Source: Candidatus Poribacteria bacterium
GTDB taxonomy: Bacteria; Poribacteria; WGA-4E; WGA-3G
Assembly (NCBI GenBank): GCA_965214095.1
Contig: OZ243938.1
Span: 192,001 to 256,000 of the forward strand
Length of the DNA: 64,000 nucleotides
Direction: 5' to 3'
The notes below the pieces were generated by a model. That model did no database searches. It was not told the origin of the DNA and was given only the letters and a program-made list of their open reading frames with translations. The stretch's first letter is position 1; every line of letters starts with the position of its first letter. The position numbers and the translations under genes are program-made. Of the stretch, positions 40,130 through 52,104 are shown piece after piece.

Positions 40130-41086
40130 ATGTTAAGTATAAAATTGAAAAGTTGCTTTTTCCTGTTAATAATAGCGATATCCACAACATCTGCCAATGC
40201 AGCATTTAATGACATTGGTGTGGGGGCGCGTCCCCTCGGTCTTGGTGGTGCATTTGTTGCCCTCGCGGATGATAGCAATGCTGCAAACTATAATGCAGCA
40301 GGATTGGCTTATATTGACGAGAGTCAGATTGGGGTAACATACTCTCAGCGATTTAGCGGATTGATTAACTACATTGGGATTAGTGGAATTGTTCCCATCG
40401 GAGCCATCGGTACACTTGGTGCAAATATAGGTATCCTATCTGAAAGCTCAGACATATATAAAGAACAATCCATACGGATAACGTATGCACGCAAACTATT
40501 TCAGCAATTGGGATTGGGGTTAAACATTAAGCACTACAGTACCAATTATGATTCAGAAAACGAGTTCGTTGCTTCAAACCCATATTTCACTGAGACATCA
40601 AGCTCGGCAGTGTCACTCGATGTAGGTCTATTAGCAAAACCGGTGAAGAGCCTAAATCTCGGTTTATCATTAGAGAATTTGGTGCCTGCGGATGTCAGTA
40701 TTTCTGAAGAAGAAACGGATACGGTCCCAATGAGTATCAGAACAGGTATTGCTTACAAACTGGAATCTATCGCTGAGATGAGTGTGCAGGGTGCTGCTAT
40801 TACAAATATATTACGAGAAACCCTAGCAACAGTGGATATACTTTCTCGCAATGGTGAACTCTACACACGAATTGGTGTAGAAATGTGGGTGAATCCATCC
40901 ATTGGTGTGCGAGGTGGGTACAGTATAAAAATTAGTGGGAATTCAGCAAACACACTCAACCTTGGTGGCAGTGCCAAGATACCGATAGGTGGTACAGCAC
41001 TGCAGCTTGATTACGGTTTTCAGCTGCTGACAGGAGACCTACAGGACAACACAACACAACGATTCTCAGTTAATCTTTTGTTCTAA
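40130..41086 (+). CDS. PorV/PorQ- or PorP/SprF-like outer-membrane beta-barrel protein
   Basis: Signal peptide; GVGARPLGLGGAFVALADD..A.YNAAGL; alternating strands; C-terminal Phe (QRFSVNLLF). Confidence 0.75.
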   Translation: MLSIKLKSCFFLLIIAISTTSANAAFNDIGVGARPLGLGGAFVALADDSNAANYNAAGLAYIDESQIGVTYSQRFSGLINYIGISGIVPIGAIGTLGANIGILSESSDIYKEQSIRITYARKLFQQLGLGLNIKHYSTNYDSENEFVASNPYFTETSSSAVSLDVGLLAKPVKSLNLGLSLENLVPADVSISEEETDTVPMSIRTGIAYKLESIAEMSVQGAAITNILRETLATVDILSRNGELYTRIGVEMWVNPSIGVRGGYSIKISGNSANTLNLGGSAKIPIGGTALQLDYGFQLLTGDLQDNTTQRFSVNLLF

Positions 41087-42788: not shown

Positions 42789-43817
42789 ATGAAAAGATTA
42801 AAGACAGTTTTATTTCCATCACACATAATTGCATTAACTATTATTTTTAGTTTATTGATTTCCTTACCAGCTATGGCAGGGTGGCTTGTCTTGCAAGAAA
42901 ATGATCCCGCTATCAGAGATTATATGTCAATCTTTTTTACTGGTGAAAAAACAGGGTGGGTTGTAGGTTCAGCTGCATTTGAAGATTATGAAAATCCAGG
43001 ATTCATTGGATTTACGTTGAATGGCGGAAAAACTTGGAATAGATCCGAACTCAGGCTGGAATCTGATTTAACTGATTTATACTTTTTTGATGAAAAACAC
43101 GGTTGGGCAGTAGGACAAAATGGCTTAATCGCCAATACAACTAACGGCAAAGATTGGGAACTTCAAGTCAGTAAGGTTCCTGGTTTAGCACTTACAAACG
43201 TCAATTTTGTCAATGAAAAAGTTGGATACGCAGTTGGCGAGAACGAAACTATTCTTTCAACGAAGAATGGCGGACGACAATGGAAAATCATAAAAGGTGG
43301 ACAGCTCGGTTCTGGTATTGGTGATGATGAGACAACTATGTTTAACTCAGTTCAGTTTCTTGATGAAAAGACTGGATTTGTTGCTGGCATACGCGTTTTC
43401 CCCAACGAGAAAACACAGAAAAGCGTTATCATGAAAACCGAAGATGGTGCACAAACGTGGATTTCTCAAGAGACTGGTCAAGAAGATATTCTTGAAGACA
43501 TATACATGCTAAATAAGGATACAGGTTGGGCAGTCGGTGAAAACGGTATTATTCTCCATACAAAAGACGGTGGAGCAACGTGGAAGAAACAGGTAAGTGG
43601 AACTGAAGAGACACTCCGTAGTGTCCATTTTGCAAGTGAAAAAGTTGGACTTACCGTTGGCGGCGAACTCGGTGTCGGTGTCTATATCACTACTACCGAC
43701 GGTGGTCAGACATGGACTATTGAAAGTACAAAACAGAAAATGATGAAGGCACATTTTCTTAACATCAATCATGTTTGGTTAGCAGGTTCAACAGGGTTGA
43801 TCATGAAGAAAGAATAA
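42789..43817 (+). CDS. YCF48-related (BNR/Asp-box) beta-propeller secreted protein
   Basis: Repeated GWAVG..G.I..T.DGG.TW motifs; signal peptide. Confidence 0.86.
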   Translation: MKRLKTVLFPSHIIALTIIFSLLISLPAMAGWLVLQENDPAIRDYMSIFFTGEKTGWVVGSAAFEDYENPGFIGFTLNGGKTWNRSELRLESDLTDLYFFDEKHGWAVGQNGLIANTTNGKDWELQVSKVPGLALTNVNFVNEKVGYAVGENETILSTKNGGRQWKIIKGGQLGSGIGDDETTMFNSVQFLDEKTGFVAGIRVFPNEKTQKSVIMKTEDGAQTWISQETGQEDILEDIYMLNKDTGWAVGENGIILHTKDGGATWKKQVSGTEETLRSVHFASEKVGLTVGGELGVGVYITTTDGGQTWTIESTKQKMMKAHFLNINHVWLAGSTGLIMKKE

Positions 43818-44030
43818 ACCGAATCAGATTTTGTTACATTGAAGATGGGTGTTAATCGCATAAACTGAACGAGTCTTGTTTGCGTCTAATACGATTGAGT
43901 AGTGCTATCAGACCAGTTATGCAACACACTTCTCTATTCCCAAAACACAATTACAATCATCATATAAAATTGTAATTTAAGGGCATTCTCACTATATTGA
44001 AACAAATAGTGAGAAGAAAAGGAGGTCATT

Positions 44031-45203
44031 TTGGACAGCCCTATATTCGCCAAGCGTATGAGCCGCTTGGGAACAGAATCGGCATTTGAGGTGTTAGCCA
44101 AAGCCAAGAGTTTAGAAGCACAAGGTAAAGACATTATACATTTAGAAATTGGTCAACCTGACTTTACGACCCCAATGAATGTATGTGAAGCAGCATTCAA
44201 GGCAATGAAAGATGGGCACACAGGTTATTGTCCATCCGCTGGAATACCTGAATTCCGTGAAGTTGTCGCACAACATATCGGTGAAACTCGTAATATTGAT
44301 ATTCACCCAGACGAAGTTACAGTAACACCTGGCGCAAAACCGATCATCTTTTTTACTATCTTAGCATTAGTGGATGATGGTGATGAAGTAATCTATCCGG
44401 AACCAGGTTTTCCTGTTTATGAATCAGTGATTGATTTTATCGGTGGTAAAGCAATTCCTCTTCCACTCCGTGAAGAAGTTGATTTTCGATTCCGAATTGA
44501 AGATCTTATAGACAGAATCACAGACCGAACAAAACTATTGATCCTCAATTCTCCCCAAAATCCTACCGGTGGCATCCTAACAGAATCTGACCTAACTGAT
44601 ATAGCAGAACTTGCACAGAAACATAACTTTTATATTCTTACCGATGAAGTTTACTCGCGTTTACTCTATGAAGGAACGCATCAAAGCATCATAAGCCTAC
44701 CAGGTTTGAAAGAGAAGACAATATTAATTGATGGACATTCAAAGACTTATGCTATGACTGGTTGGCGATTAGGATACGGTGTTGCCCCTCGCGAGATTGC
44801 AGATAAGATAACACGATTGACCATCAACTCAAATTCATGCACAGCCACTTTCACACAATATGCAGGTATAGAAGCATTGGTAGGACCTCAGACGTTCGTA
44901 ACACAGATGGTAGCAGAGTTTAGAAAACGCCGTGATGTCATTGTAGATGGATTAAATGCTATTGACGGTATTTCCTGTGTCAAACCACTCGGTTCATTTT
45001 ATGTTTTTCCGAATGTATCAAAACTACCACTTTCATGTGAAGAACTTGCTGATTATATAATGAATGAGGTAGGCGTTGCGTTATTACCCGGCACAGCATT
45101 TGGGAAGTACGGTGATGGGTATCTTAGACTTTCTTATGCAAATTCTTTAGAAAATATAGAAGATGCCCTCAACAGAATACAAACTGCTGTTTCCAAGTTG
45201 TAG
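44031..45203 (+). CDS. PLP-dependent class I aminotransferase (aspartate aminotransferase-like)
   Basis: GQPDF.TP, NSPQNPTG, TDEVY, SKTYAMTGWRLG, YLRLSYA. Confidence 0.92.
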   Translation: MDSPIFAKRMSRLGTESAFEVLAKAKSLEAQGKDIIHLEIGQPDFTTPMNVCEAAFKAMKDGHTGYCPSAGIPEFREVVAQHIGETRNIDIHPDEVTVTPGAKPIIFFTILALVDDGDEVIYPEPGFPVYESVIDFIGGKAIPLPLREEVDFRFRIEDLIDRITDRTKLLILNSPQNPTGGILTESDLTDIAELAQKHNFYILTDEVYSRLLYEGTHQSIISLPGLKEKTILIDGHSKTYAMTGWRLGYGVAPREIADKITRLTINSNSCTATFTQYAGIEALVGPQTFVTQMVAEFRKRRDVIVDGLNAIDGISCVKPLGSFYVFPNVSKLPLSCEELADYIMNEVGVALLPGTAFGKYGDGYLRLSYANSLENIEDALNRIQTAVSKL

Positions 45204-45223
45204 ACAGATTTAGGATATATAAA

Positions 45224-46132
45224 ATGTCTCAGAAAGCGACAGCGCGAATTCCCGCAAGCACAACAAATCTTGGACCCGGGTTTGATGTACTGGGATTAGC
45301 ACTGCAACTTTATAGCACCGTTTCATTGGAAATCACAAAAAATGAAACAGATGTTATTGTCAGTGGTGTAGATGTTGATAAGATACCAAGCACAACGGAA
45401 CACATTGCTTTTCGTGCGGTAGAATACGTTTTTCAAAGTTGCGGACAACAACTACCTAATGGCTTAATATTGAACATTGCTAACGGTATTCCTGCTATAC
45501 GGGGTTTAGGCGGCAGTGGTACTGCTATCCTTGGCGGGTTGTTAACAGCAAATGTTTTATGTGGTAATCCGTTTTCTCGTTCAGAACTACTCAATTTTGC
45601 CTCAGCAATTGAAGGGCATCCAGACAATGTTGCTGCTTCTTTGCTTGGAGGTCTGGTTATATCGGTACAAGAAAATGACCATATCCATACAATAAAGATA
45701 CCATGCGATCCTACTTTACACATTGTACTCGCTATCCCTGAATTCACATTGTCTACTCAGAAAGCGCGTGACATTTTACCCAAAAAAGTAGAATTTGCAG
45801 ATGCTATATATAACATAAGTCGAAGTTCACTACTTGTGGCAAGTATAGCATCTGGAAAATTAGACATTCTTTCAACTGCGATGTCTGATAAACTTCATCA
45901 ACCATATCGCAGCAGAATTATCCCTGGATTTAATGATGTCGTTGATGCAGCAACTTCTGCAGGAGCTCTGAGCACTGCATTAAGTGGCGCGGGACCAACA
46001 ATTGCGGCCTACTGCATTGATAACATGCAGGAAGTTGGTATTAGCATGCAGGAAGCATTTAGTGATAACGACATCCGTTGTGAAATAAAGATATTGAGTG
46101 CAGATCTGGATGGGGCAAAAGTGTGGACATAA
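45224..46132 (+). CDS. thrB: Homoserine kinase
   Basis: PASTTNLGPGFD, IP..RGLG.S, EGHPDN, D.LHQPYR, LSGAGPT. Confidence 0.94.
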   Translation: MSQKATARIPASTTNLGPGFDVLGLALQLYSTVSLEITKNETDVIVSGVDVDKIPSTTEHIAFRAVEYVFQSCGQQLPNGLILNIANGIPAIRGLGGSGTAILGGLLTANVLCGNPFSRSELLNFASAIEGHPDNVAASLLGGLVISVQENDHIHTIKIPCDPTLHIVLAIPEFTLSTQKARDILPKKVEFADAIYNISRSSLLVASIASGKLDILSTAMSDKLHQPYRSRIIPGFNDVVDAATSAGALSTALSGAGPTIAAYCIDNMQEVGISMQEAFSDNDIRCEIKILSADLDGAKVWT

Positions 46133-46337
46133 TACCAATTCTGAAAGTTAAAGTCGCATTAGGAGTTTATTAGTCGTTGTAAATGTACGAGACGCAATGG
46201 ATTGCGCTTGGTGAATGTGCTTATGACATTACATTGAACCAGTTATTTCTCTAAGGGTATGTTCTCAATTACAAACACTATAAGATGACAGTATCATAAT
46301 TTGAAATCATAAGAAACAAGCATTGTTAGGAAAAAAT

Positions 46338-49064
46338 ATGTCTAATTTCTATGCAGAAACAATTTCTTTTCTGCAGAACCAGTTCAATACAGATTTAGAA
46401 TCTGGCTTGAGTCACGCTGAAGTTGAAAAGTTAAGAGTAGAACACGGTGAAAATGTCTCAATGTCCAAATTCAAATCTTGGAATATGTCATCTTATCTTG
46501 AGCAGGTATTCAACTGGAGATTATTATTACTGGTACTTACCTCAGTACTTTTCGGTATTGCTGGTGACTTATATGGTACAATTCTCATTGGTACAATTGC
46601 AATTATTTCACTATTGTGGGCAACAGTTGTGGCAATTAGTTCTCAGATTAGACAAAAACACCTTCAAAAGCAATTCAACTACAAAGTATCTGTAATCCGG
46701 CAAGGCAAGCAAGAACAGTGTCATCCATCAGACATTGTTCCGGGGGACCTTCTTGTACTTAGGCAGGGGAACTATATTCCCGCTGATGCCCGAATAATAC
46801 AAGCGGATGGACTATTTGTTGATGAGTCAAGTTTGTTTGGAAGTAGTGGTGCTGCGAAAAAAGATGTTAAAGAAATAACTGAAACTGGTATCCCACCTGA
46901 ACAACAGACAAACATGGTTTTTGGTGGTACTTTTGTTGACGCAGGAGTTGGGAATGCAATTGTCGTCAGAACGGCTGATGAGATGGAAATGTATAAGATA
47001 AATACAGAAAACCGTCAGATGCCTAAAGAAATGACTGGTGATGAAAACCAATTAAAGTTTTGTAAAGACATATTGATATTTGCTGGTCTGGTCGTCGGGA
47101 CAATTGCTGTCGCAATCTCATGGTGGCAACAATCCTCGCTAAATCCCACTACCAATTGGATACAATATGTTCAAATCGTGTTGATATTTGCTTTAGCTGC
47201 GACACCCTATAACTTATCTTTACTATTGAATACCATTATAGATCGTAGATCTTTTGGCTTGACCAAAAGAGGATTGGTGTTACGAAATAGCAAAGATTTT
47301 GAGAAGTTAAACCGGCTCACTGCTTTCTGTTCTGATGAACAAGGCATTGTAAGTACACAATCTCTGACAATTTCCAATATCTTTGTGGATGAACAAATTG
47401 TTAATCGGTCAACATGGGAAAAATGGTTGACATCACTTGAATCACATCCATCGGATGAAATAAGTGAACGTGTTAGTAATATATCACCTGGATTTCATAT
47501 TCCGCAAGGTGCCCCAGGTTTGGTATTGACCGCCGGTTTGGGTACATCTGGGGAACGATACTATGATAGGAATAACACAGAACAATCACATCAACAAGTT
47601 ATACATGCTGCTGTGGAAAAACTCGGATACCAATTGAATACTATAAAATCTAATATGCAGCTTGTTACAGAATACCCTTGGACTGCAAACTTTGGATTTG
47701 AACTTCATGTATTTAAATCTGGGGATGATGAGTATTTGAATATTATAGTTGGTGATGCAGGCGATGTCTTGGAAGCAAGTGATTCTATCCTTGTTAATGG
47801 GGAAATAACGGAGTTTTCTTACGAACAATTTGAAAATTGTAATGAAATCCTAAAATACATGAAAAACTCCAGAGAACATGTCTTCGGTATAGCCTCTGTA
47901 CATTCTGAAATGCCATTGTCCCCTCCTGAAGTTCAGGGAGTATCAACTTTTTTAGGGTTCATCAGTTTTTCTGCTACAGATAAGAAAGAGACTATTTCGG
48001 TGATTAAGTCTTTCCTTGACACCGGCATTAAGGTCATTCTGATTAGCGAAGTAGATGAACAGACAACCACAGATTTGGCAAGAGAACTTGGACTTGCACA
48101 CACCCGAAACGCCGTTGCAACAAGAGAAGAACTCATAAATCTTACAACACAAGAGTTTGATCGTGAAGTGCCAAATTTGAGCGCATATTCTCAACCGACG
48201 CAAGAACAGAGACGTAACATTGTTCGCAGTTTGAAGCGGCATGATAATTCGGTAGGATATTTAGGTCAAAGTTCTATTGATCAACGGGCAATGATTGCAG
48301 CGGATATCGCATTTGCTGATACAAGATATGCAACACATTACGCACAAGACCACGCGGATTGTCTGATAATTGACAAAGGTTTTAAGTCAGTAAAAGAATG
48401 TATGATATATGCGCGTGAAGTATATCTAAACCTTTCAGGAACATTGCGGTGGTGTCTTTCTTGCACAATCGCTCAATTCTTAGTAGTGATTTTCGGTTTG
48501 ATCTTACACACTGGGTTTAATTATGAAATGCCACTCTCACTGAAACAGGTCGTTTGGGTGCAATTCTTGACAACACTGCTGCCAGCCATCGGGTTAGGCT
48601 ATGAGAAACTGTTTGTAGATTCTAAACATTACAATACCAGTAGAACGACTTCTTTACTACCGAAGACTGCAGTGTTTGATATTGTGTGCAGAAGTGTTGT
48701 TATCAGTTTGATGACAATTATACATTTCTTAGTAATTACATTTACATCGGAAGAATTTAATCTATTAGAGGCACAATCAGCAACATGCACAACGCTTTTC
48801 TTTACACAAGTGGTTTCCTACTTCCAATGTATGCGCTATCCGTGGGAGTCACTCTTCAAAAGGATGTTTGTCAACATTCGGCTATTATTTGTTTTTATAC
48901 TGGTAATTGGACTTTATATGGCTGGTATGTATATTGAATTCATACATTCTATAATTGGTATCGTTCCACTTCAAAAGGATTGGATAATCACTGGTTTGTG
49001 TAGTATTATTTTGCTGTTATTACCACTAAATTTGGCTATTAATCCTCGTAAAGATATGATTTAA
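46338..49064 (+). CDS. Cation-transporting P-type (P2A-like) ATPase homologue with degenerate catalytic motifs
   Basis: Full architecture (GLS..E...R..HGEN, IVPGD...G..IPADAR, about 10 TM segments) but DKTGT reads DEQGI, TGES reads FGSS, PEGL reads PYNL, GDGxND reads GQSSID. Confidence 0.82.
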   Translation: MSNFYAETISFLQNQFNTDLESGLSHAEVEKLRVEHGENVSMSKFKSWNMSSYLEQVFNWRLLLLVLTSVLFGIAGDLYGTILIGTIAIISLLWATVVAISSQIRQKHLQKQFNYKVSVIRQGKQEQCHPSDIVPGDLLVLRQGNYIPADARIIQADGLFVDESSLFGSSGAAKKDVKEITETGIPPEQQTNMVFGGTFVDAGVGNAIVVRTADEMEMYKINTENRQMPKEMTGDENQLKFCKDILIFAGLVVGTIAVAISWWQQSSLNPTTNWIQYVQIVLIFALAATPYNLSLLLNTIIDRRSFGLTKRGLVLRNSKDFEKLNRLTAFCSDEQGIVSTQSLTISNIFVDEQIVNRSTWEKWLTSLESHPSDEISERVSNISPGFHIPQGAPGLVLTAGLGTSGERYYDRNNTEQSHQQVIHAAVEKLGYQLNTIKSNMQLVTEYPWTANFGFELHVFKSGDDEYLNIIVGDAGDVLEASDSILVNGEITEFSYEQFENCNEILKYMKNSREHVFGIASVHSEMPLSPPEVQGVSTFLGFISFSATDKKETISVIKSFLDTGIKVILISEVDEQTTTDLARELGLAHTRNAVATREELINLTTQEFDREVPNLSAYSQPTQEQRRNIVRSLKRHDNSVGYLGQSSIDQRAMIAADIAFADTRYATHYAQDHADCLIIDKGFKSVKECMIYAREVYLNLSGTLRWCLSCTIAQFLVVIFGLILHTGFNYEMPLSLKQVVWVQFLTTLLPAIGLGYEKLFVDSKHYNTSRTTSLLPKTAVFDIVCRSVVISLMTIIHFLVITFTSEEFNLLEAQSATCTTLFFTQVVSYFQCMRYPWESLFKRMFVNIRLLFVFILVIGLYMAGMYIEFIHSIIGIVPLQKDWIITGLCSIILLLLPLNLAINPRKDMI

Positions 49065-51010
49065 ACCCAGAACCCGTAGGTCGGTATTCCACCGATAATT
49101 CCGATAATTGTCCAGATACTTCCAATTGTGAACTCACCAAGGATTAAACCTAAAAAGAATGGGGCTACCTTCCGATACCTTACGGGTCCACCATATTTTA
49201 GAATGATTAATTTGATAAGCCAACTCATGAATAAACAACCCCAAGTAACGTTCATACCCCAACTTGTTGAAATGGCAAATCCTGCTGGATGAAAGGGCCA
49301 CCAAACAAACCGCATTCTAAATAGCATCAAAAAGGTTGTCATCAAATACCCGAACACTGTAAAAGCAGTTTCAGGAACAAGTGTCCCAGTTGGTGATTGT
49401 AACCAACCTGTGAGTCTTCTGTAAGGTTCAATACCGAAAGCACTCAAGGATGGTGAAGGGGCACGAACTTCCATACCTAACTGATAACCTCGGTCAATTA
49501 ATGCCCAGAATCCTGCTAAAGAACCTAATGCAGCTGCAAACATCAATGCAAAAACAATGCGTCGCATTGACATATTCGTCCGTTCTATTATCTTGAAACC
49601 TTCCAATTGATGGGGCATCGGGTGGCTGCGGTAGGCACGGTTGATAAACCAAAACAGTGAGAACATCACAAGGTTTTCTCTGCCTAACTTACGGGTACCC
49701 ACAACTCTTGTTAGGATCTGATCAGGGCCCGCATAATGAAGATCGTGAACAGGTGTTCCTAACTCAGCACGCATGCGTGTGATAGCAATAGAAATCATAT
49801 AATAAATTACAAAGAAAACAAACATAATACCGATGTTTGCACCACCGTAGTAACAAAATACGACCAAGAATAATATTGCCATGATCAATCCGAATACTGC
49901 ACCTCTATACGAAAGTGGGCCCTCTTTTGCTTGTGAGTTGTCTCTACTAAAAATCATCCGCCCAACCCAAAGCAGATGTCGTCTACTTGCCCAAATAGCA
50001 AGAACGCACAATGCAAGATACCCACCAGACGCTTGCTCGTTAAGATATGGGAATCTTGGTAGACTTCTAAATCCGAACATCGCTCCAACGACACGCAATA
50101 TCCGCCAATACCAGAAGAAAAACCAACAGGAAAATGAAAGGTCAAGAGGAATAAAAAAACCGAGTCCAATTGCAAATGGATATAGTGAAAAAGGGATATT
50201 ACCCATCGCATTCCAAGGACTGTCAGTGAAAATTCGGTAACTCCGATTCCGGGTAGGTAACTCCGGAAAAAAAGGATACAAGAAACTTAACCCATTCCAC
50301 AAGGCTAAACCACCTGCAATACAGAATCCCACCCACATAACCTTATTCTTAAAGAAGTTGTTATGGGCAGCACCAGTCAATTGAAGCGGAAGATGGATTA
50401 TCGGGTAGCTTAGTTTTTCATACTCTATCCACTGTTTTCTAATGATGATGTTGATGCAGAGCATACCAAATACTAATACACCGATGAAGACTGTCCACCA
50501 CAGAACGGGTGTTGCCCAACCGAGTAGCGTTTGATATGTATAGAGCGGTAAGTCACCTTCATAGTAACCCCGTAGTAATTCACTGTTACGGACAGTAAGC
50601 CATTCCGGTAGATAAGGAAGGAACAGCTGCTGCCATTCATTCTCTGGAGTTGCGAAGCGAAACGCATGTCCCAACATCGGCACTAATATCTCAAGCATAT
50701 CGTGACCAGTAATTCCGGATGCAATAGAAAGCATCAAATAGACAACTACCAATTCACTCTGTGCTAATGCTAAAGGAGGGAGGACTCGTTTCAACAGTTG
50801 GTTGAGACCTATTATAACAAACAGAGAAAATATTACATTGAAAAAGAGGGAAATCGTGACAGGATGTCCTGAATAACGGATTACCTCCATCTCAATCACC
50901 CAATAACAGTTGATCGGTATGAGGATGGCAGCGATAAGGATAGATTTGATAGTAACCCCGTGGGGAGGAATCTGTGAAGGATTAAATGCCGGGGTCTGTT
51001 GTATTTCCAT
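49061..51010 (-). CDS. Polytopic membrane protein, DUF6785/DUF6784-like
   Basis: RKQWIEYEKLSYPI, PLDLSFS.WFF, R.RAELG.P, WWPFHPAG, LKYGG...Y....PFFLGLILGE; family recognised from memory. Confidence 0.7.
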   Translation of the reverse strand: MEIQQTPAFNPSQIPPHGVTIKSILIAAILIPINCYWVIEMEVIRYSGHPVTISLFFNVIFSLFVIIGLNQLLKRVLPPLALAQSELVVVYLMLSIASGITGHDMLEILVPMLGHAFRFATPENEWQQLFLPYLPEWLTVRNSELLRGYYEGDLPLYTYQTLLGWATPVLWWTVFIGVLVFGMLCINIIIRKQWIEYEKLSYPIIHLPLQLTGAAHNNFFKNKVMWVGFCIAGGLALWNGLSFLYPFFPELPTRNRSYRIFTDSPWNAMGNIPFSLYPFAIGLGFFIPLDLSFSCWFFFWYWRILRVVGAMFGFRSLPRFPYLNEQASGGYLALCVLAIWASRRHLLWVGRMIFSRDNSQAKEGPLSYRGAVFGLIMAILFLVVFCYYGGANIGIMFVFFVIYYMISIAITRMRAELGTPVHDLHYAGPDQILTRVVGTRKLGRENLVMFSLFWFINRAYRSHPMPHQLEGFKIIERTNMSMRRIVFALMFAAALGSLAGFWALIDRGYQLGMEVRAPSPSLSAFGIEPYRRLTGWLQSPTGTLVPETAFTVFGYLMTTFLMLFRMRFVWWPFHPAGFAISTSWGMNVTWGCLFMSWLIKLIILKYGGPVRYRKVAPFFLGLILGEFTIGSIWTIIGIIGGIPTYGFWV

Positions 51011-51046
51011 GTAGTTTTAGATTCAATAGTTATACAAGTTTTATGT

Positions 51047-51075
51047 AGTCTACAGTATTATGAGTAGCTTGTCAA
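51047..51075 (-). promoter_or_regulatory. Putative sigma70 promoter of the membrane-protein gene
   Basis: Minus strand TTGACA-17-TAGACT. Confidence 0.55.
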
Positions 51076-51300
51076 CACCTTTATGTGTGTAGCCAGAGGC
51101 ATTTAACGTTAGTGAATAATATTAAACAGAAAGCCGAAAACTAAATAATCTTGCTCCTATACTTTATCTTTTTCTTAACAATGTAATTGTGGTATAATTG
51201 AGATATTCACAAATAGTGACAATCTATAACAACAAAAGTCCTAAAACAAACCTATTTGACTATAGGAACAATATAAAGAAACACCATCTCAAGAAAATCA

Positions 51301-52104
51301 ATGAATCCTTTCAAATATCTAAAACATCAAGCGGAAAGACGTTTCTATAGAGCGTATCAAAAACAGCTGGAGGCAGAAGCAGGTACGTGGAATATCCCAC
51401 GTCATATCGGTGTTATTCTCGATGGAAACAGACGGTACGCTAAAGCAACGGGGTTAGATAATGTGATTAAGGGACATTACGAAGGGGCAGATAAACTTGA
51501 GGAAGTACTTAGCTGGTGCGATGAACTTGGTGTAGAAATCTTTTCAATATGGATTTTTTCTCTTGATAACTTCAACCGCGCTGATGATGAGGTAGAAGGA
51601 ATTTTGGGATTAATTGAAAGGAAAATGCGTGAGTTAGTTACAATCAAGGGACTTCACAAAAATAAAATTAAGGTGCGTGCAATGGGACAGATTGAACGTC
51701 TACCGCAAAGTCTTCAAGAAGCAATTCGTCAAGCAGAGGAAGCGACTAAAGATTATGACAAATTTATCCTGAATGTCGCTGTTGCCTACGGAGGACGTGA
51801 GGAGATAATTGATGCAGTCAGAGGACACTTAAAGGCGGAAATACAAAAAGGAAAAGATGCCCTTCAAATTGCTGATGAATTAAGTGTTGATACAATTGCA
51901 CCATATCTATACACCTCAAATCTTCCGGATCCTGAGTTAATCATCCGGACAAGTGGAGAGGTGCGGCTATCTGGATTTTTGTTATGGCAGAGCGTATATT
52001 CCGAATTTTATTTCTGCGATACCTATTGGCCCTCATTTAGGAAGATTGACTTTCTACGTGCAATACGAGACTATAGCCATCGTAAACGACGATTTGGGAA
52101 ATAA
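51301..52104 (+). CDS. uppS: cis-prenyltransferase (UppS family, resembling short-chain Z-isoprenyl diphosphate synthases)
   Basis: PRHIGVILDGNRR, FS.DNF.R, YGGR.EI, IRTSGEVRLSGFLLWQ, RRFGK. Confidence 0.86.
   Translation: MNPFKYLKHQAERRFYRAYQKQLEAEAGTWNIPRHIGVILDGNRRYAKATGLDNVIKGHYEGADKLEEVLSWCDELGVEIFSIWIFSLDNFNRADDEVEGILGLIERKMRELVTIKGLHKNKIKVRAMGQIERLPQSLQEAIRQAEEATKDYDKFILNVAVAYGGREEIIDAVRGHLKAEIQKGKDALQIADELSVDTIAPYLYTSNLPDPELIIRTSGEVRLSGFLLWQSVYSEFYFCDTYWPSFRKIDFLRAIRDYSHRKRRFGK

Follow-up and report, generated by a model that had tools for sequence, protein, structure and literature searches.

Few membrane enzymes are understood as well as the P-type ATPases, whose signature motifs are regarded as near invariant. 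Here we describe a gene whose product has the fold of such a pump and lacks its motifs. The gene lies on the forward strand, at positions 46338-49064 of a 64,000-nucleotide stretch of a Candidatus Poribacteria genome (contig OZ243938.1, positions 192,001 to 256,000; hereafter the window), and encodes a P2-type ATPase homologue that we refer to as a pseudo-pump. Its nearest relatives in sequence are SPCA1/PMR1, LMCA1 and SERCA, with which it shares ten transmembrane helices, the A, P and N domains and 49 conserved positions. Unlike them, it carries none of the signatures, scores far below the equivalog cut-offs and belongs to a separate, long-branched clade. The protein is very probably a non-catalytic pump homologue that selection has maintained. 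As a whole, the data are best explained by an ancient, vertically inherited family of dead P2-type pumps with a history of duplication and a non-enzymatic role, a reading to which we assign a probability of about 0.78.

In concept, the closest precedent for a protein that has the shape of a pump and possibly does not pump is human TMEM94 (ERMA). The accessible part of one report describes it as P-type-like, with ten transmembrane helices, three A/P/N-like cytoplasmic domains and no TGES, and reports that ATPase activity was undetectable, that the phosphorylation site proposed for it held no nucleotide and that Mg2+ was not bound, with possible autoinhibition in detergent (PMC12134183). A later paper from another group presents TMEM94, in its accessible part, as an active Mg2+ ATPase of the endoplasmic reticulum (PMC13322241). 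The comparison with the pseudo-pump is a conceptual one. TMEM94 is eukaryotic and much larger, and the pseudo-pump is clearly P2A-derived and is detected by standard Pfam models. A second case is P4GC, the flippase (P4-ATPase) module of alveolate guanylate cyclases. According to the accessible text of that study, some lineages (Cryptosporidium, P4GC-beta, gregarines and Tetrahymena) have changes at the DKTGT Asp and the A-domain Glu, and the ATPase activity there may be modified or lost (PMC13466520). As far as that text extends, the module resembles the pseudo-pump in having been retained despite altered motifs; it differs in being cyclase-fused, P4-type, eukaryotic and degenerate in a subset of lineages. 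The pseudo-pump is free-standing, bacterial and P2-type, all members found are degenerate, and strong purifying selection on it is documented quantitatively below. Searches of the full-text literature, in a collection that leaves out most subscription journals, revealed no bacterial family of P-type ATPases devoid of catalytic motifs; this agrees with the initial annotation of the locus, made from the sequence without database searches, to which no such family was known. Functionally uncharacterised P-type families have reportedly been catalogued by Saier and colleagues, which the literature search did not confirm.

The pseudo-pump gene consists of 908 codons and a stop codon, with a frame that is open throughout. 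An alternative TTG-started frame (46323-49064) would yield 913 amino acids; we place the start at the ATG at 46338 because orthologues have the N-terminus MSNFY in common. Three Pfam models, Cation_ATPase_N (PF00690), E1-E2_ATPase (PF00122) and Cation_ATPase_C (PF00689), match above their cut-offs. The protein has no Pfam match to the hydrolase model PF00702 or to the N-domain model Cation_ATPase (PF13246), and a weak DUF7747 match (21.3 bits, cut-off 25) was disregarded. The top NCBIfam model is TIGR01522, for PMR1-type Ca2+-ATPases, at 216.3 bits against an equivalog cut-off of 798.3, followed by TIGR01116 at 145.1 bits against a cut-off of 703.4. Among solved structures, human SPCA1 and Listeria LMCA1 are nearest (HMMER, E 1e-48 to 1e-44). 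The closest clusters in the ESM Atlas are ordinary bacterial Ca2+-ATPases and offer no lead on function.

Structurally, the pseudo-pump follows the P2-type fold. An AlphaFold2 (AF2) model built from a phylum-wide alignment of 57 family sequences reached a mean predicted local distance difference test score (pLDDT) of 83.8 and a predicted template-modelling score (pTM) of 0.75. It has ten membrane helices (M1 to M10); the M2-M3 connection carries a β-rich A domain, and the connection from M4 to M5 carries P and N domains that are Rossmann-like. The helical break of M4 at Pro290 persists in the model (helices 274-288 and 293-310). When compared with the Protein Data Bank by Foldseek, the model retrieved only P2-type pumps among its top matches (Na,K-ATPase, SPCA1, SERCA and H,K-ATPase), with E-values from 5e-47, 16-19% identity and template-modelling (TM) scores of 0.59-0.75 over the first 50 matches; the upper values, to Na,K-ATPase and SERCA, confirm that the fold is that of SERCA-type pumps. 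The highest TM-scores belong to structures in the E1 state; the conformation of the model is not taken to indicate the state adopted in the cell. Homology and fold together place the protein within the P-type ATPase superfamily, and the intact P2A-type layout of about 908 codons proposed in the initial annotation is borne out by the translation, the Pfam matches and the AF2 model.

The residues that perform the chemistry have been replaced. Motifs were checked with HMMER alignments and by a column-by-column comparison of 57 family members with 70 canonical P2 pumps (the first of 114 that pass a motif-and-length filter among 137 representatives), and every substitution that the initial annotation had listed was verified in both. 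In the A domain, the loop FGSS (residues 167-170, positions 46836-46847; this and the following features lie on the forward strand) replaces TGES. Phe167 is 88% conserved in the family, at a position that is Thr in 100% of the canonical pumps, and the A-domain Glu is not conserved. In M4, PYNL (residues 290-293, 47205-47216) stands in place of PEGL: Pro290 is retained and the ion-ligand Glu is gone (Y291). The former phosphorylation loop reads CSDEQGIVS (residues 331-339, 47328-47354) where canonical pumps have CSDKTGTLT. Asp333 is retained in the window protein, at a position that is 42% Asp across the family, and the Lys of DKTGT has become Glu334 (82% Glu in the family). In the N domain, VGDAGD (residues 471-476, 47748-47765) replaces KGAPE, with loss of the ATP-binding Lys (V471 in the window protein; the family consensus is Phe, 74%). 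In the P domain, SEV (residues 570-572, 48045-48053) replaces TGD, and the hinge GDGxND has become GQSSID (residues 643-648, 48264-48281), in which only Gly643 and the final Asp648 are retained, each at ≥90% in the family. The ion ligands Asn..Glu of M5 are replaced by T710..Q713 (48465-48476), and Asn..Thr-Asp of M6 by Q742..T745 T746 (48561-48575). Additional losses affect DPPR (ATDK, residues 546-549), the N-domain Phe and Arg (W448 and H514) and the P-domain Lys (R625). Altogether, about 110 positions that are ≥85% conserved in the 70 canonical pumps are lost in the family.

These changes are a property of the whole family. A search of 5.8 billion proteins returned 240 matches, and none of the 120 listed homologues contains DKTG (0/120). 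Because the same pattern recurs in all 120, the substitutions go far beyond chance. Their forms were read from the 117 homologues longer than 850 amino acids, divided into a closer and a more distant group. The A-domain loop is FGSS in 48/48 sequences of the closer group and FGTE in 60/69 of the distant group. The phosphorylation loop takes the form C[ST]DE[KNQ]GI in the closer group and CANENGL, with Asp changed to Asn, in the distant one (overall C[SA][DN]E.G[IL]); the hinge reads LGQ[NS]..DQR and LGQN..D.R, respectively. The substituted motifs are thus conserved among orthologues in new forms of their own.

A phylum-wide survey of 40 full-length homologues spanning the poribacterial families f1 to f11, the source genus belonging to f1, extended this pattern. 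All 39 sequences of f1-f10 are degenerate, with TGES, TGD and GDGxND missing from each, and the sole f11 sequence, which ends at a contig edge, is fully canonical. Across f1-f10 the TGES position shows FGSS, FGT[EKD], FGT[TS], FDGA, FRRS, TGIS, WPDN and others. Depending on the lineage, the nucleophile position holds D, N, S, Q or E in these 40 sequences; the following residue is never Lys except in f10, where the nucleophile Asp is Asn. The M6 Asp is gone in all 39 degenerate sequences, and no relative carries DKTGT or TGES at this locus. Since the nucleophile varies among these five residues, aspartyl-phosphate chemistry is not what selection maintains.

The features of a functional Post-Albers pump, namely the DKTGT Asp, TGES, the HAD-type motifs II-IV and the N-domain residues with DPPR, are not preserved, and neither is the ion site of a P2A Ca2+-ATPase, its M4, M5 and M6 carboxylates and amides having been replaced. 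Because the nucleophile is unconserved, the residues for holding phosphate and Mg2+ are missing and uncharged residues have taken the place of the transmembrane carboxylates, the pseudo-pump is, to judge from its residues, unable to run the Post-Albers cycle. One could suppose instead that it is still an ATP-driven pump that works by unorthodox chemistry, with another nucleophile or nucleotide site. The window protein does possess Asp333, a Ser at the position of the TGD Thr, an Arg at that of the P-domain Lys, and Asp648; its P domain is the most constrained part of the protein, and databases annotate family members as Ca2+ or cation ATPases. Against this, many equally constrained lineages have N, S, Q or E at the nucleophile position, and family-wide losses comprise TGES, DPPR, TGD, the first Asp of the hinge, the hinge Asn and, in the N domain, Phe, Lys and Arg. 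In addition, the Pfam hydrolase and N-domain models fail to match, and TIGR01522 yields 216 of the required 798 bits. We therefore regard such a pump as exceedingly improbable.

The pseudo-pump is nevertheless a near-universal gene of the phylum. Matches at E ≤ 1e-20 were found in 174/176 phylum genomes, including 133/133 high-quality genomes (≥90% complete, ≤5% contaminated) and 31/31 genera; completeness is 81% and 79% for the two genomes in which no match was found. The 120 listed homologues are about 905-980 amino acids long, save for three fragments, and come from Candidatus Poribacteria wherever an organism is named. Among the listed matches in the 174 genomes, none is interrupted, and frequent truncation of orthologues is thus not seen. 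Most genomes hold one match. Genus g6 often shows two, of which the listed one spans query residues 1-804; the second probably corresponds to the C-terminal end of that gene, since the g6 frames extracted are single and full-length (954-980 amino acids). A seemingly conserved in-frame TAG in genus g15 was rejected as an interruption, as it is the terminal stop of a 918-amino-acid frame spanning query residues 1-904. The f5 matches were flagged with one TGA, and the open frames of f5 comprise 910-915 amino acids.

Selection on the gene was quantified as the ratio of nonsynonymous to synonymous rates (dN/dS, or omega) by the Nei-Gojobori method for 30 orthologues of the source genus, with finite dS in 380/435 pairs. 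The ratio is 0.076-0.19 in the 25 pairs of lowest dS, 0.114 between the window gene and its nearest relative (dN 0.065, dS 0.57), and 0.123 when pooled over eight phylogenetically separate pairs. It is thus about 0.12, far from 1, on the branch of the window gene as well. In the same eight genome pairs, the neighbouring homoserine kinase gene thrB has a dN/dS of 0.088-0.156 and the pump gene one of 0.076-0.169. Four sequences of genus g6, in which the nucleophile is Asn, give 0.106-0.14 at a dS of 0.73-1.5, which is partly saturated. As these ratios are on par with thrB, also in the Asn lineage, the gene is maintained as strictly as a housekeeping enzyme. Divided by region, with approximate boundaries set from the alignment and the model, omega is 0.18 in the N-terminus, 0.29 in M1-M2, 0.13 in the A domain, 0.16 in M3-M4, 0.023 in the P-domain segment 311-350, 0.13 in the N domain, 0.058 in the P-domain segment 546-695 and 0.118 in M5-M10. 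The P domain is the most constrained region, and the former phosphorylation loop lies within its segment 311-350.

These results bear directly on the idea that the gene was inactivated recently and is turning into a pseudogene. A root-to-tip path about three times that of canonical pumps would fit such decay, as would a deep divergence in excess of that of the neighbouring genes (33% identity to f2, compared with 63-78% for thrB and the aminotransferase gene). The gene, however, shows neither stops nor frameshifts nor truncation; no broken match occurs in the 174 genomes, dN/dS is 0.12 and at the level of thrB, and the loss of the motifs is older than the split of f1 to f10. The intact matches, the dN/dS and the depth of the loss refute this explanation. 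With catalytic residues absent, and with fold, length and purifying selection retained across species, the protein has the attributes of a pseudoenzyme, its inactivity being read from the residues, and the family is a pseudoenzyme branch of the P-type ATPase superfamily. Intact retention in nearly all Poribacteria despite the lost chemistry implies that the protein now has a different job. The initial annotation had proposed retention by selection for a non-pumping role, which is supported by the dN/dS, by the presence in 174/176 genomes and by the conserved new motifs.

Outside the phylum, the family was not encountered within the ranks inspected. A profile search of 1.84 billion representatives with the family alignment yielded 97,521 P-type homologues at E ≤ 0.001, of which the best 150 were inspected. 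By a motif test, 125 of these are canonical, 16 lack DKTG, and 9 have DKTG and miss one motif pattern. The 16 without DKTG occupy ranks 1-13, 15, 18 and 62, and all of them match Poribacteria lineages, at 65-100% (11 sequences), 44-50% (4) or 29% identity (1). The last, a metagenomic sequence termed P0128, nests within the degenerate family in the tree. A pattern scan with one genome per GTDB species gave a similar picture for the best 80 of at least 582 confirmed loci: nine are titled Candidatus Poribacteria and all nine are degenerate, and 70 of the 71 from other phyla carry DKTG and GDGxND, the remaining one having DKTG and ending at a contig edge. Within the best 150 representatives and the best 80 loci, the pseudo-pump family is confined to Poribacteria. 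Public databases name its members 'Ca2+-transporting ATPase', 'cation-transporting P-type ATPase' or 'cation transporting ATPase C-terminal domain-containing protein'. By the motif analysis, these names are homology transfers that it does not support. From the cluster names of ten remote members, a single organism (Candidatus Poribacteria) and two functional labels could be read.

The origin of the family was examined in an IQ-TREE phylogeny (LG+C20+F+G4 with PMSF, quick search) of 25 degenerate and 23 canonical sequences, the latter comprising every fifth of the 114 canonical representatives and the f11 sequence. All 25 degenerate sequences fall on one side of a branch with an SH-aLRT support of 100. 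Within their clade, the order of branching is f10, (f5, f8), f9 with (f6, f7), P0128, f4, f3, f2 and f1. This order matches the kinship ranks of the families, which favours vertical descent. The root-to-tip distance is about 3.8 substitutions per site for the window protein, compared with about 0.9-1.4 for canonical pumps, at an arbitrary root position; the longer path indicates an overall rate of evolution several times higher in the family. The stem leading to f1 has a length of 0.83.

A canonical P2 pump is seldom found in the same genome as the pseudo-pump. The source genome (5.25 Mb in 4 contigs, 94.5% complete) contains two E1-E2 ATPase matches, the pseudo-pump and, about 1.4 Mb away, a CopA-type copper pump of the P1B subfamily. 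The latter is canonical (HMA domain, CPC, DKTGT, TGES, GDGIND), belongs to a different subfamily and is unlinked to the pseudo-pump, and it is the sole other P-type ATPase gene of the genome. A canonical P2 query at a threshold of E ≤ 1e-100, to which the negatives refer, found a strong match in only 3/176 phylum genomes, two of f10 and one of f11, the most distantly related families. In f10, canonical fragments, located at contig ends, occur in addition to the degenerate copy, one with DKTG, TGES and PEGL and another with TGD and GDGxND. This coexistence may capture a state that follows duplication and precedes loss of the canonical copy.

We postulate a duplication of a canonical P2 pump close to the base of the phylum. 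One duplicate would then have lost the residues for phosphorylation, dephosphorylation, ATP binding and ion binding; in the lineage leading to f1-f9 the canonical copy would later have disappeared, the dead copy remaining under purifying selection. Duplication, loss of the chemistry and loss of the canonical copy, in this order, make up the simplest history that we can infer. Loss of the canonical copy in f1-f9 makes the pseudo-pump an unlikely partner of an active paralogue. A structural or regulatory partnership with some active P-type pump had been suggested in the initial annotation, and two observations lend themselves to it: f10 has a canonical P2 pump in addition to the degenerate copy, which makes an early pairing possible, and the source genome does hold one active-looking P-type ATPase, CopA. 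The latter is, however, about 1.4 Mb distant, no P-type gene is a conserved neighbour, and 173/176 genomes are without a canonical P2 match at the threshold, yet the pseudo-pump is present in 174/176. With CopA as the only other P-type pump of the genome, the suggestion finds no support, and we consider such a partnership highly improbable.

The positions that the family does conserve indicate where its present function may reside. The 49 positions at which the same residue is ≥85% conserved in both the family and the canonical pumps are mostly structural. They include PGD, PAD.R, the Lys that follows the TGES loop, the prolines of M4 and M6, the hinge Gly and the final hinge Asp. A further 58 positions are ≥80% conserved in the family and different or variable in canonical pumps. 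Among these are F167, E334 (which reverses the charge of the DKTGT Lys), F349-V350-D351 and Q353 at the junction of the P and N domains, as well as W360, K565, Q624 and W705. Three family-specific clusters lie towards the C-terminus, again on the forward strand: Asp781 (93%) and Arg785 (98%), where the helix following M6 begins, on the cytoplasmic side by homology (48678-48692); Q830, R833, E837, S838, L839 and R842 at the end of M8 and in the next loop (48825-48863); and the C-terminal motif LPLNL (residues 895-899, 49020-49034), which is 84-98% conserved. By comparison, the old ion-site positions differ between families. M5 has T..Q in f1-f4, H..L or H..M in f8 and S..T in f10, and the position of the M6 Asp holds T, N, G, F, V and others. 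Since the residues of the headpiece and loops are conserved and the ion site is variable, the function is placed in the cytoplasmic headpiece and the membrane-proximal loops. Tentatively, and on the strength of these conservation patterns, the pseudo-pump may be a non-enzymatic membrane protein that acts through these parts in a structural or regulatory capacity. A fixed interaction or regulatory surface could be made up of the remodelled P domain, the P-N hinge, the LPLNL tail and the loops that follow M6 and M8; alternatively, the same parts could form a latch that locks the fold in a single conformation.

Transport through the old ion site is a less likely mode of action. It would make the protein an ATP-independent conduit, that is, a passive channel, uniporter or facilitator, whose neutralised ion site lines a polar pathway. 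Such a conduit is compatible with a pseudoenzyme; the site residues in f1 are Y/H/Q, T, Q, Q, T and T, and within f1 these replacements are themselves conserved. The helix-unwinding prolines of M4 (Pro290) and M6 (Pro732) are retained, and the AF2 model keeps the break in M4. M5-M10 show an omega of 0.118 and a conservation of 0.57 in the family, compared with 0.51 in canonical pumps. Palytoxin converts Na,K-ATPase into a channel, and the palytoxin-Na,K-ATPase structure 9vj0 is among the fold matches. These points are offset by the variation of the former site residues across the phylum and by the distribution of constraint, which is weakest in M1-M2 and M3-M4 (omega 0.29 and 0.16), segments that would contribute to lining a pathway, and strongest in the P domain. 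Three intact cytoplasmic domains would, moreover, be superfluous for a simple conduit. We consider a conduit unlikely.

Several points weigh against our overall reading of a dead pump family with a non-enzymatic role. The proposed mode of action is drawn solely from residue conservation, and a search for RNA runs that contain the locus found none. M5-M10 are also well constrained (the omega of 0.118 given above), which is compatible with a membrane function. PEG[ILV] persists in genus g7 of f2, in most of f3 and in genus g18 of f4, and Asp at the nucleophile position, Pro in M4 and the last Asp of the hinge are retained by the window protein and many relatives; a residual ligand- or ion-binding role may exist in some lineages. 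The f5 and f10 loci lack the synteny described below, and for these families deep orthology is drawn from the tree. Finally, members outside Poribacteria could lie below the ranks inspected.

The pseudo-pump gene is the third member of a recurrent, co-directional gene order. Immediately upstream on the same strand lies thrB, encoding homoserine kinase (45224-46132; TIGR00191, 296 bits, cut-off 168), preceded by a class I/II aminotransferase gene (44031-45203, forward strand) whose nearest relatives are aspartate aminotransferases (aspC-like). The order aminotransferase-thrB-pump is found in all 30 loci of the source genus, the aminotransferase lying beyond the flank in one of them, and on the same strand also in other genera of f1 and in f2, f3, f4, f6, f7, f8 and f9; this shared neighbourhood thus recurs in eight families. 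It is missing from f5, f10, genus g15 of f3 and some loci of f2 and f8, and the co-directional cluster is present in 9/13 loci with 4-kb flanks. Both neighbours are much more conserved than the pump; in comparison with f2, for instance, the aminotransferase shows 76-78% identity and thrB 58-63%, against 32-33% in the pump. No Rfam family was found in the 205-nucleotide spacer between thrB and the pump gene; a scan of 43500-51500 gave one sub-threshold snoRNA match, inside the gene and on the opposite strand. No terminator-like site was detected in 45900-49400, and promoter-like hexamers (18 observed, 11.1 expected) were uninformative. Co-transcription of the pump gene with thrB is plausible.

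Further upstream, a gene for a Ycf48-like BNR/Asp-box β-propeller protein occupies 42789-43817 on the forward strand (PSII_BNR, E 4e-24, below the NCBIfam cut-off). It occurs here in a non-photosynthetic phylum, with a conserved place upstream of aminotransferase-thrB-pump in f1-f3 and immediately upstream of the pump in f5. A 318-amino-acid open reading frame at 40130-41086 on the same strand has no Pfam family at E ≤ 0.001. Downstream, a convergent gene on the reverse strand (49061-51010) overlaps the pump stop codon by 4 nucleotides and encodes a protein of 649 amino acids with the domains DUF6785 (E 1e-166) and DUF6784 (E 3e-33) and no NCBIfam match. This protein is 74-93% identical across f1 and adjoins the pump in f1 only; as the downstream genes differ in other families, it was rejected as a conserved downstream partner.

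The family shows that the pump fold can be reused beyond ATP-driven transport. It provides a natural, evolutionarily validated counterpart to the disputed TMEM94 and to the degenerate P4GC flippase modules, and a tractable soluble-plus-membrane system for the study of the pump scaffold without its chemistry. We give about an even chance to a more far-reaching interpretation, in which a Ca2+-pump paralogue was turned, at phylum depth, into a novel non-enzymatic membrane machine. The gene would then be a core gene, with a single locus in each genome and constraint on par with thrB, that outlasted the canonical pump, and would represent the first bacterial pseudo-P-type ATPase family, in which the P-domain pocket, made up of the Asp/Asn-Glu loop and the hinge Asp, and the new loops carry a function without counterpart; examples would be a ligand- or metal-sensing gate, or a membrane-organising scaffold tied to the unusual cell biology of these symbionts. 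For the Poribacteria, which are prominent sponge symbionts, metabolic reconstructions may wrongly credit a Ca2+ pump that is apparently missing in 173/176 genomes. If that result holds, these organisms have no P-type Ca2+/Mg2+ pump at all, and their Ca2+ efflux would proceed by other means.

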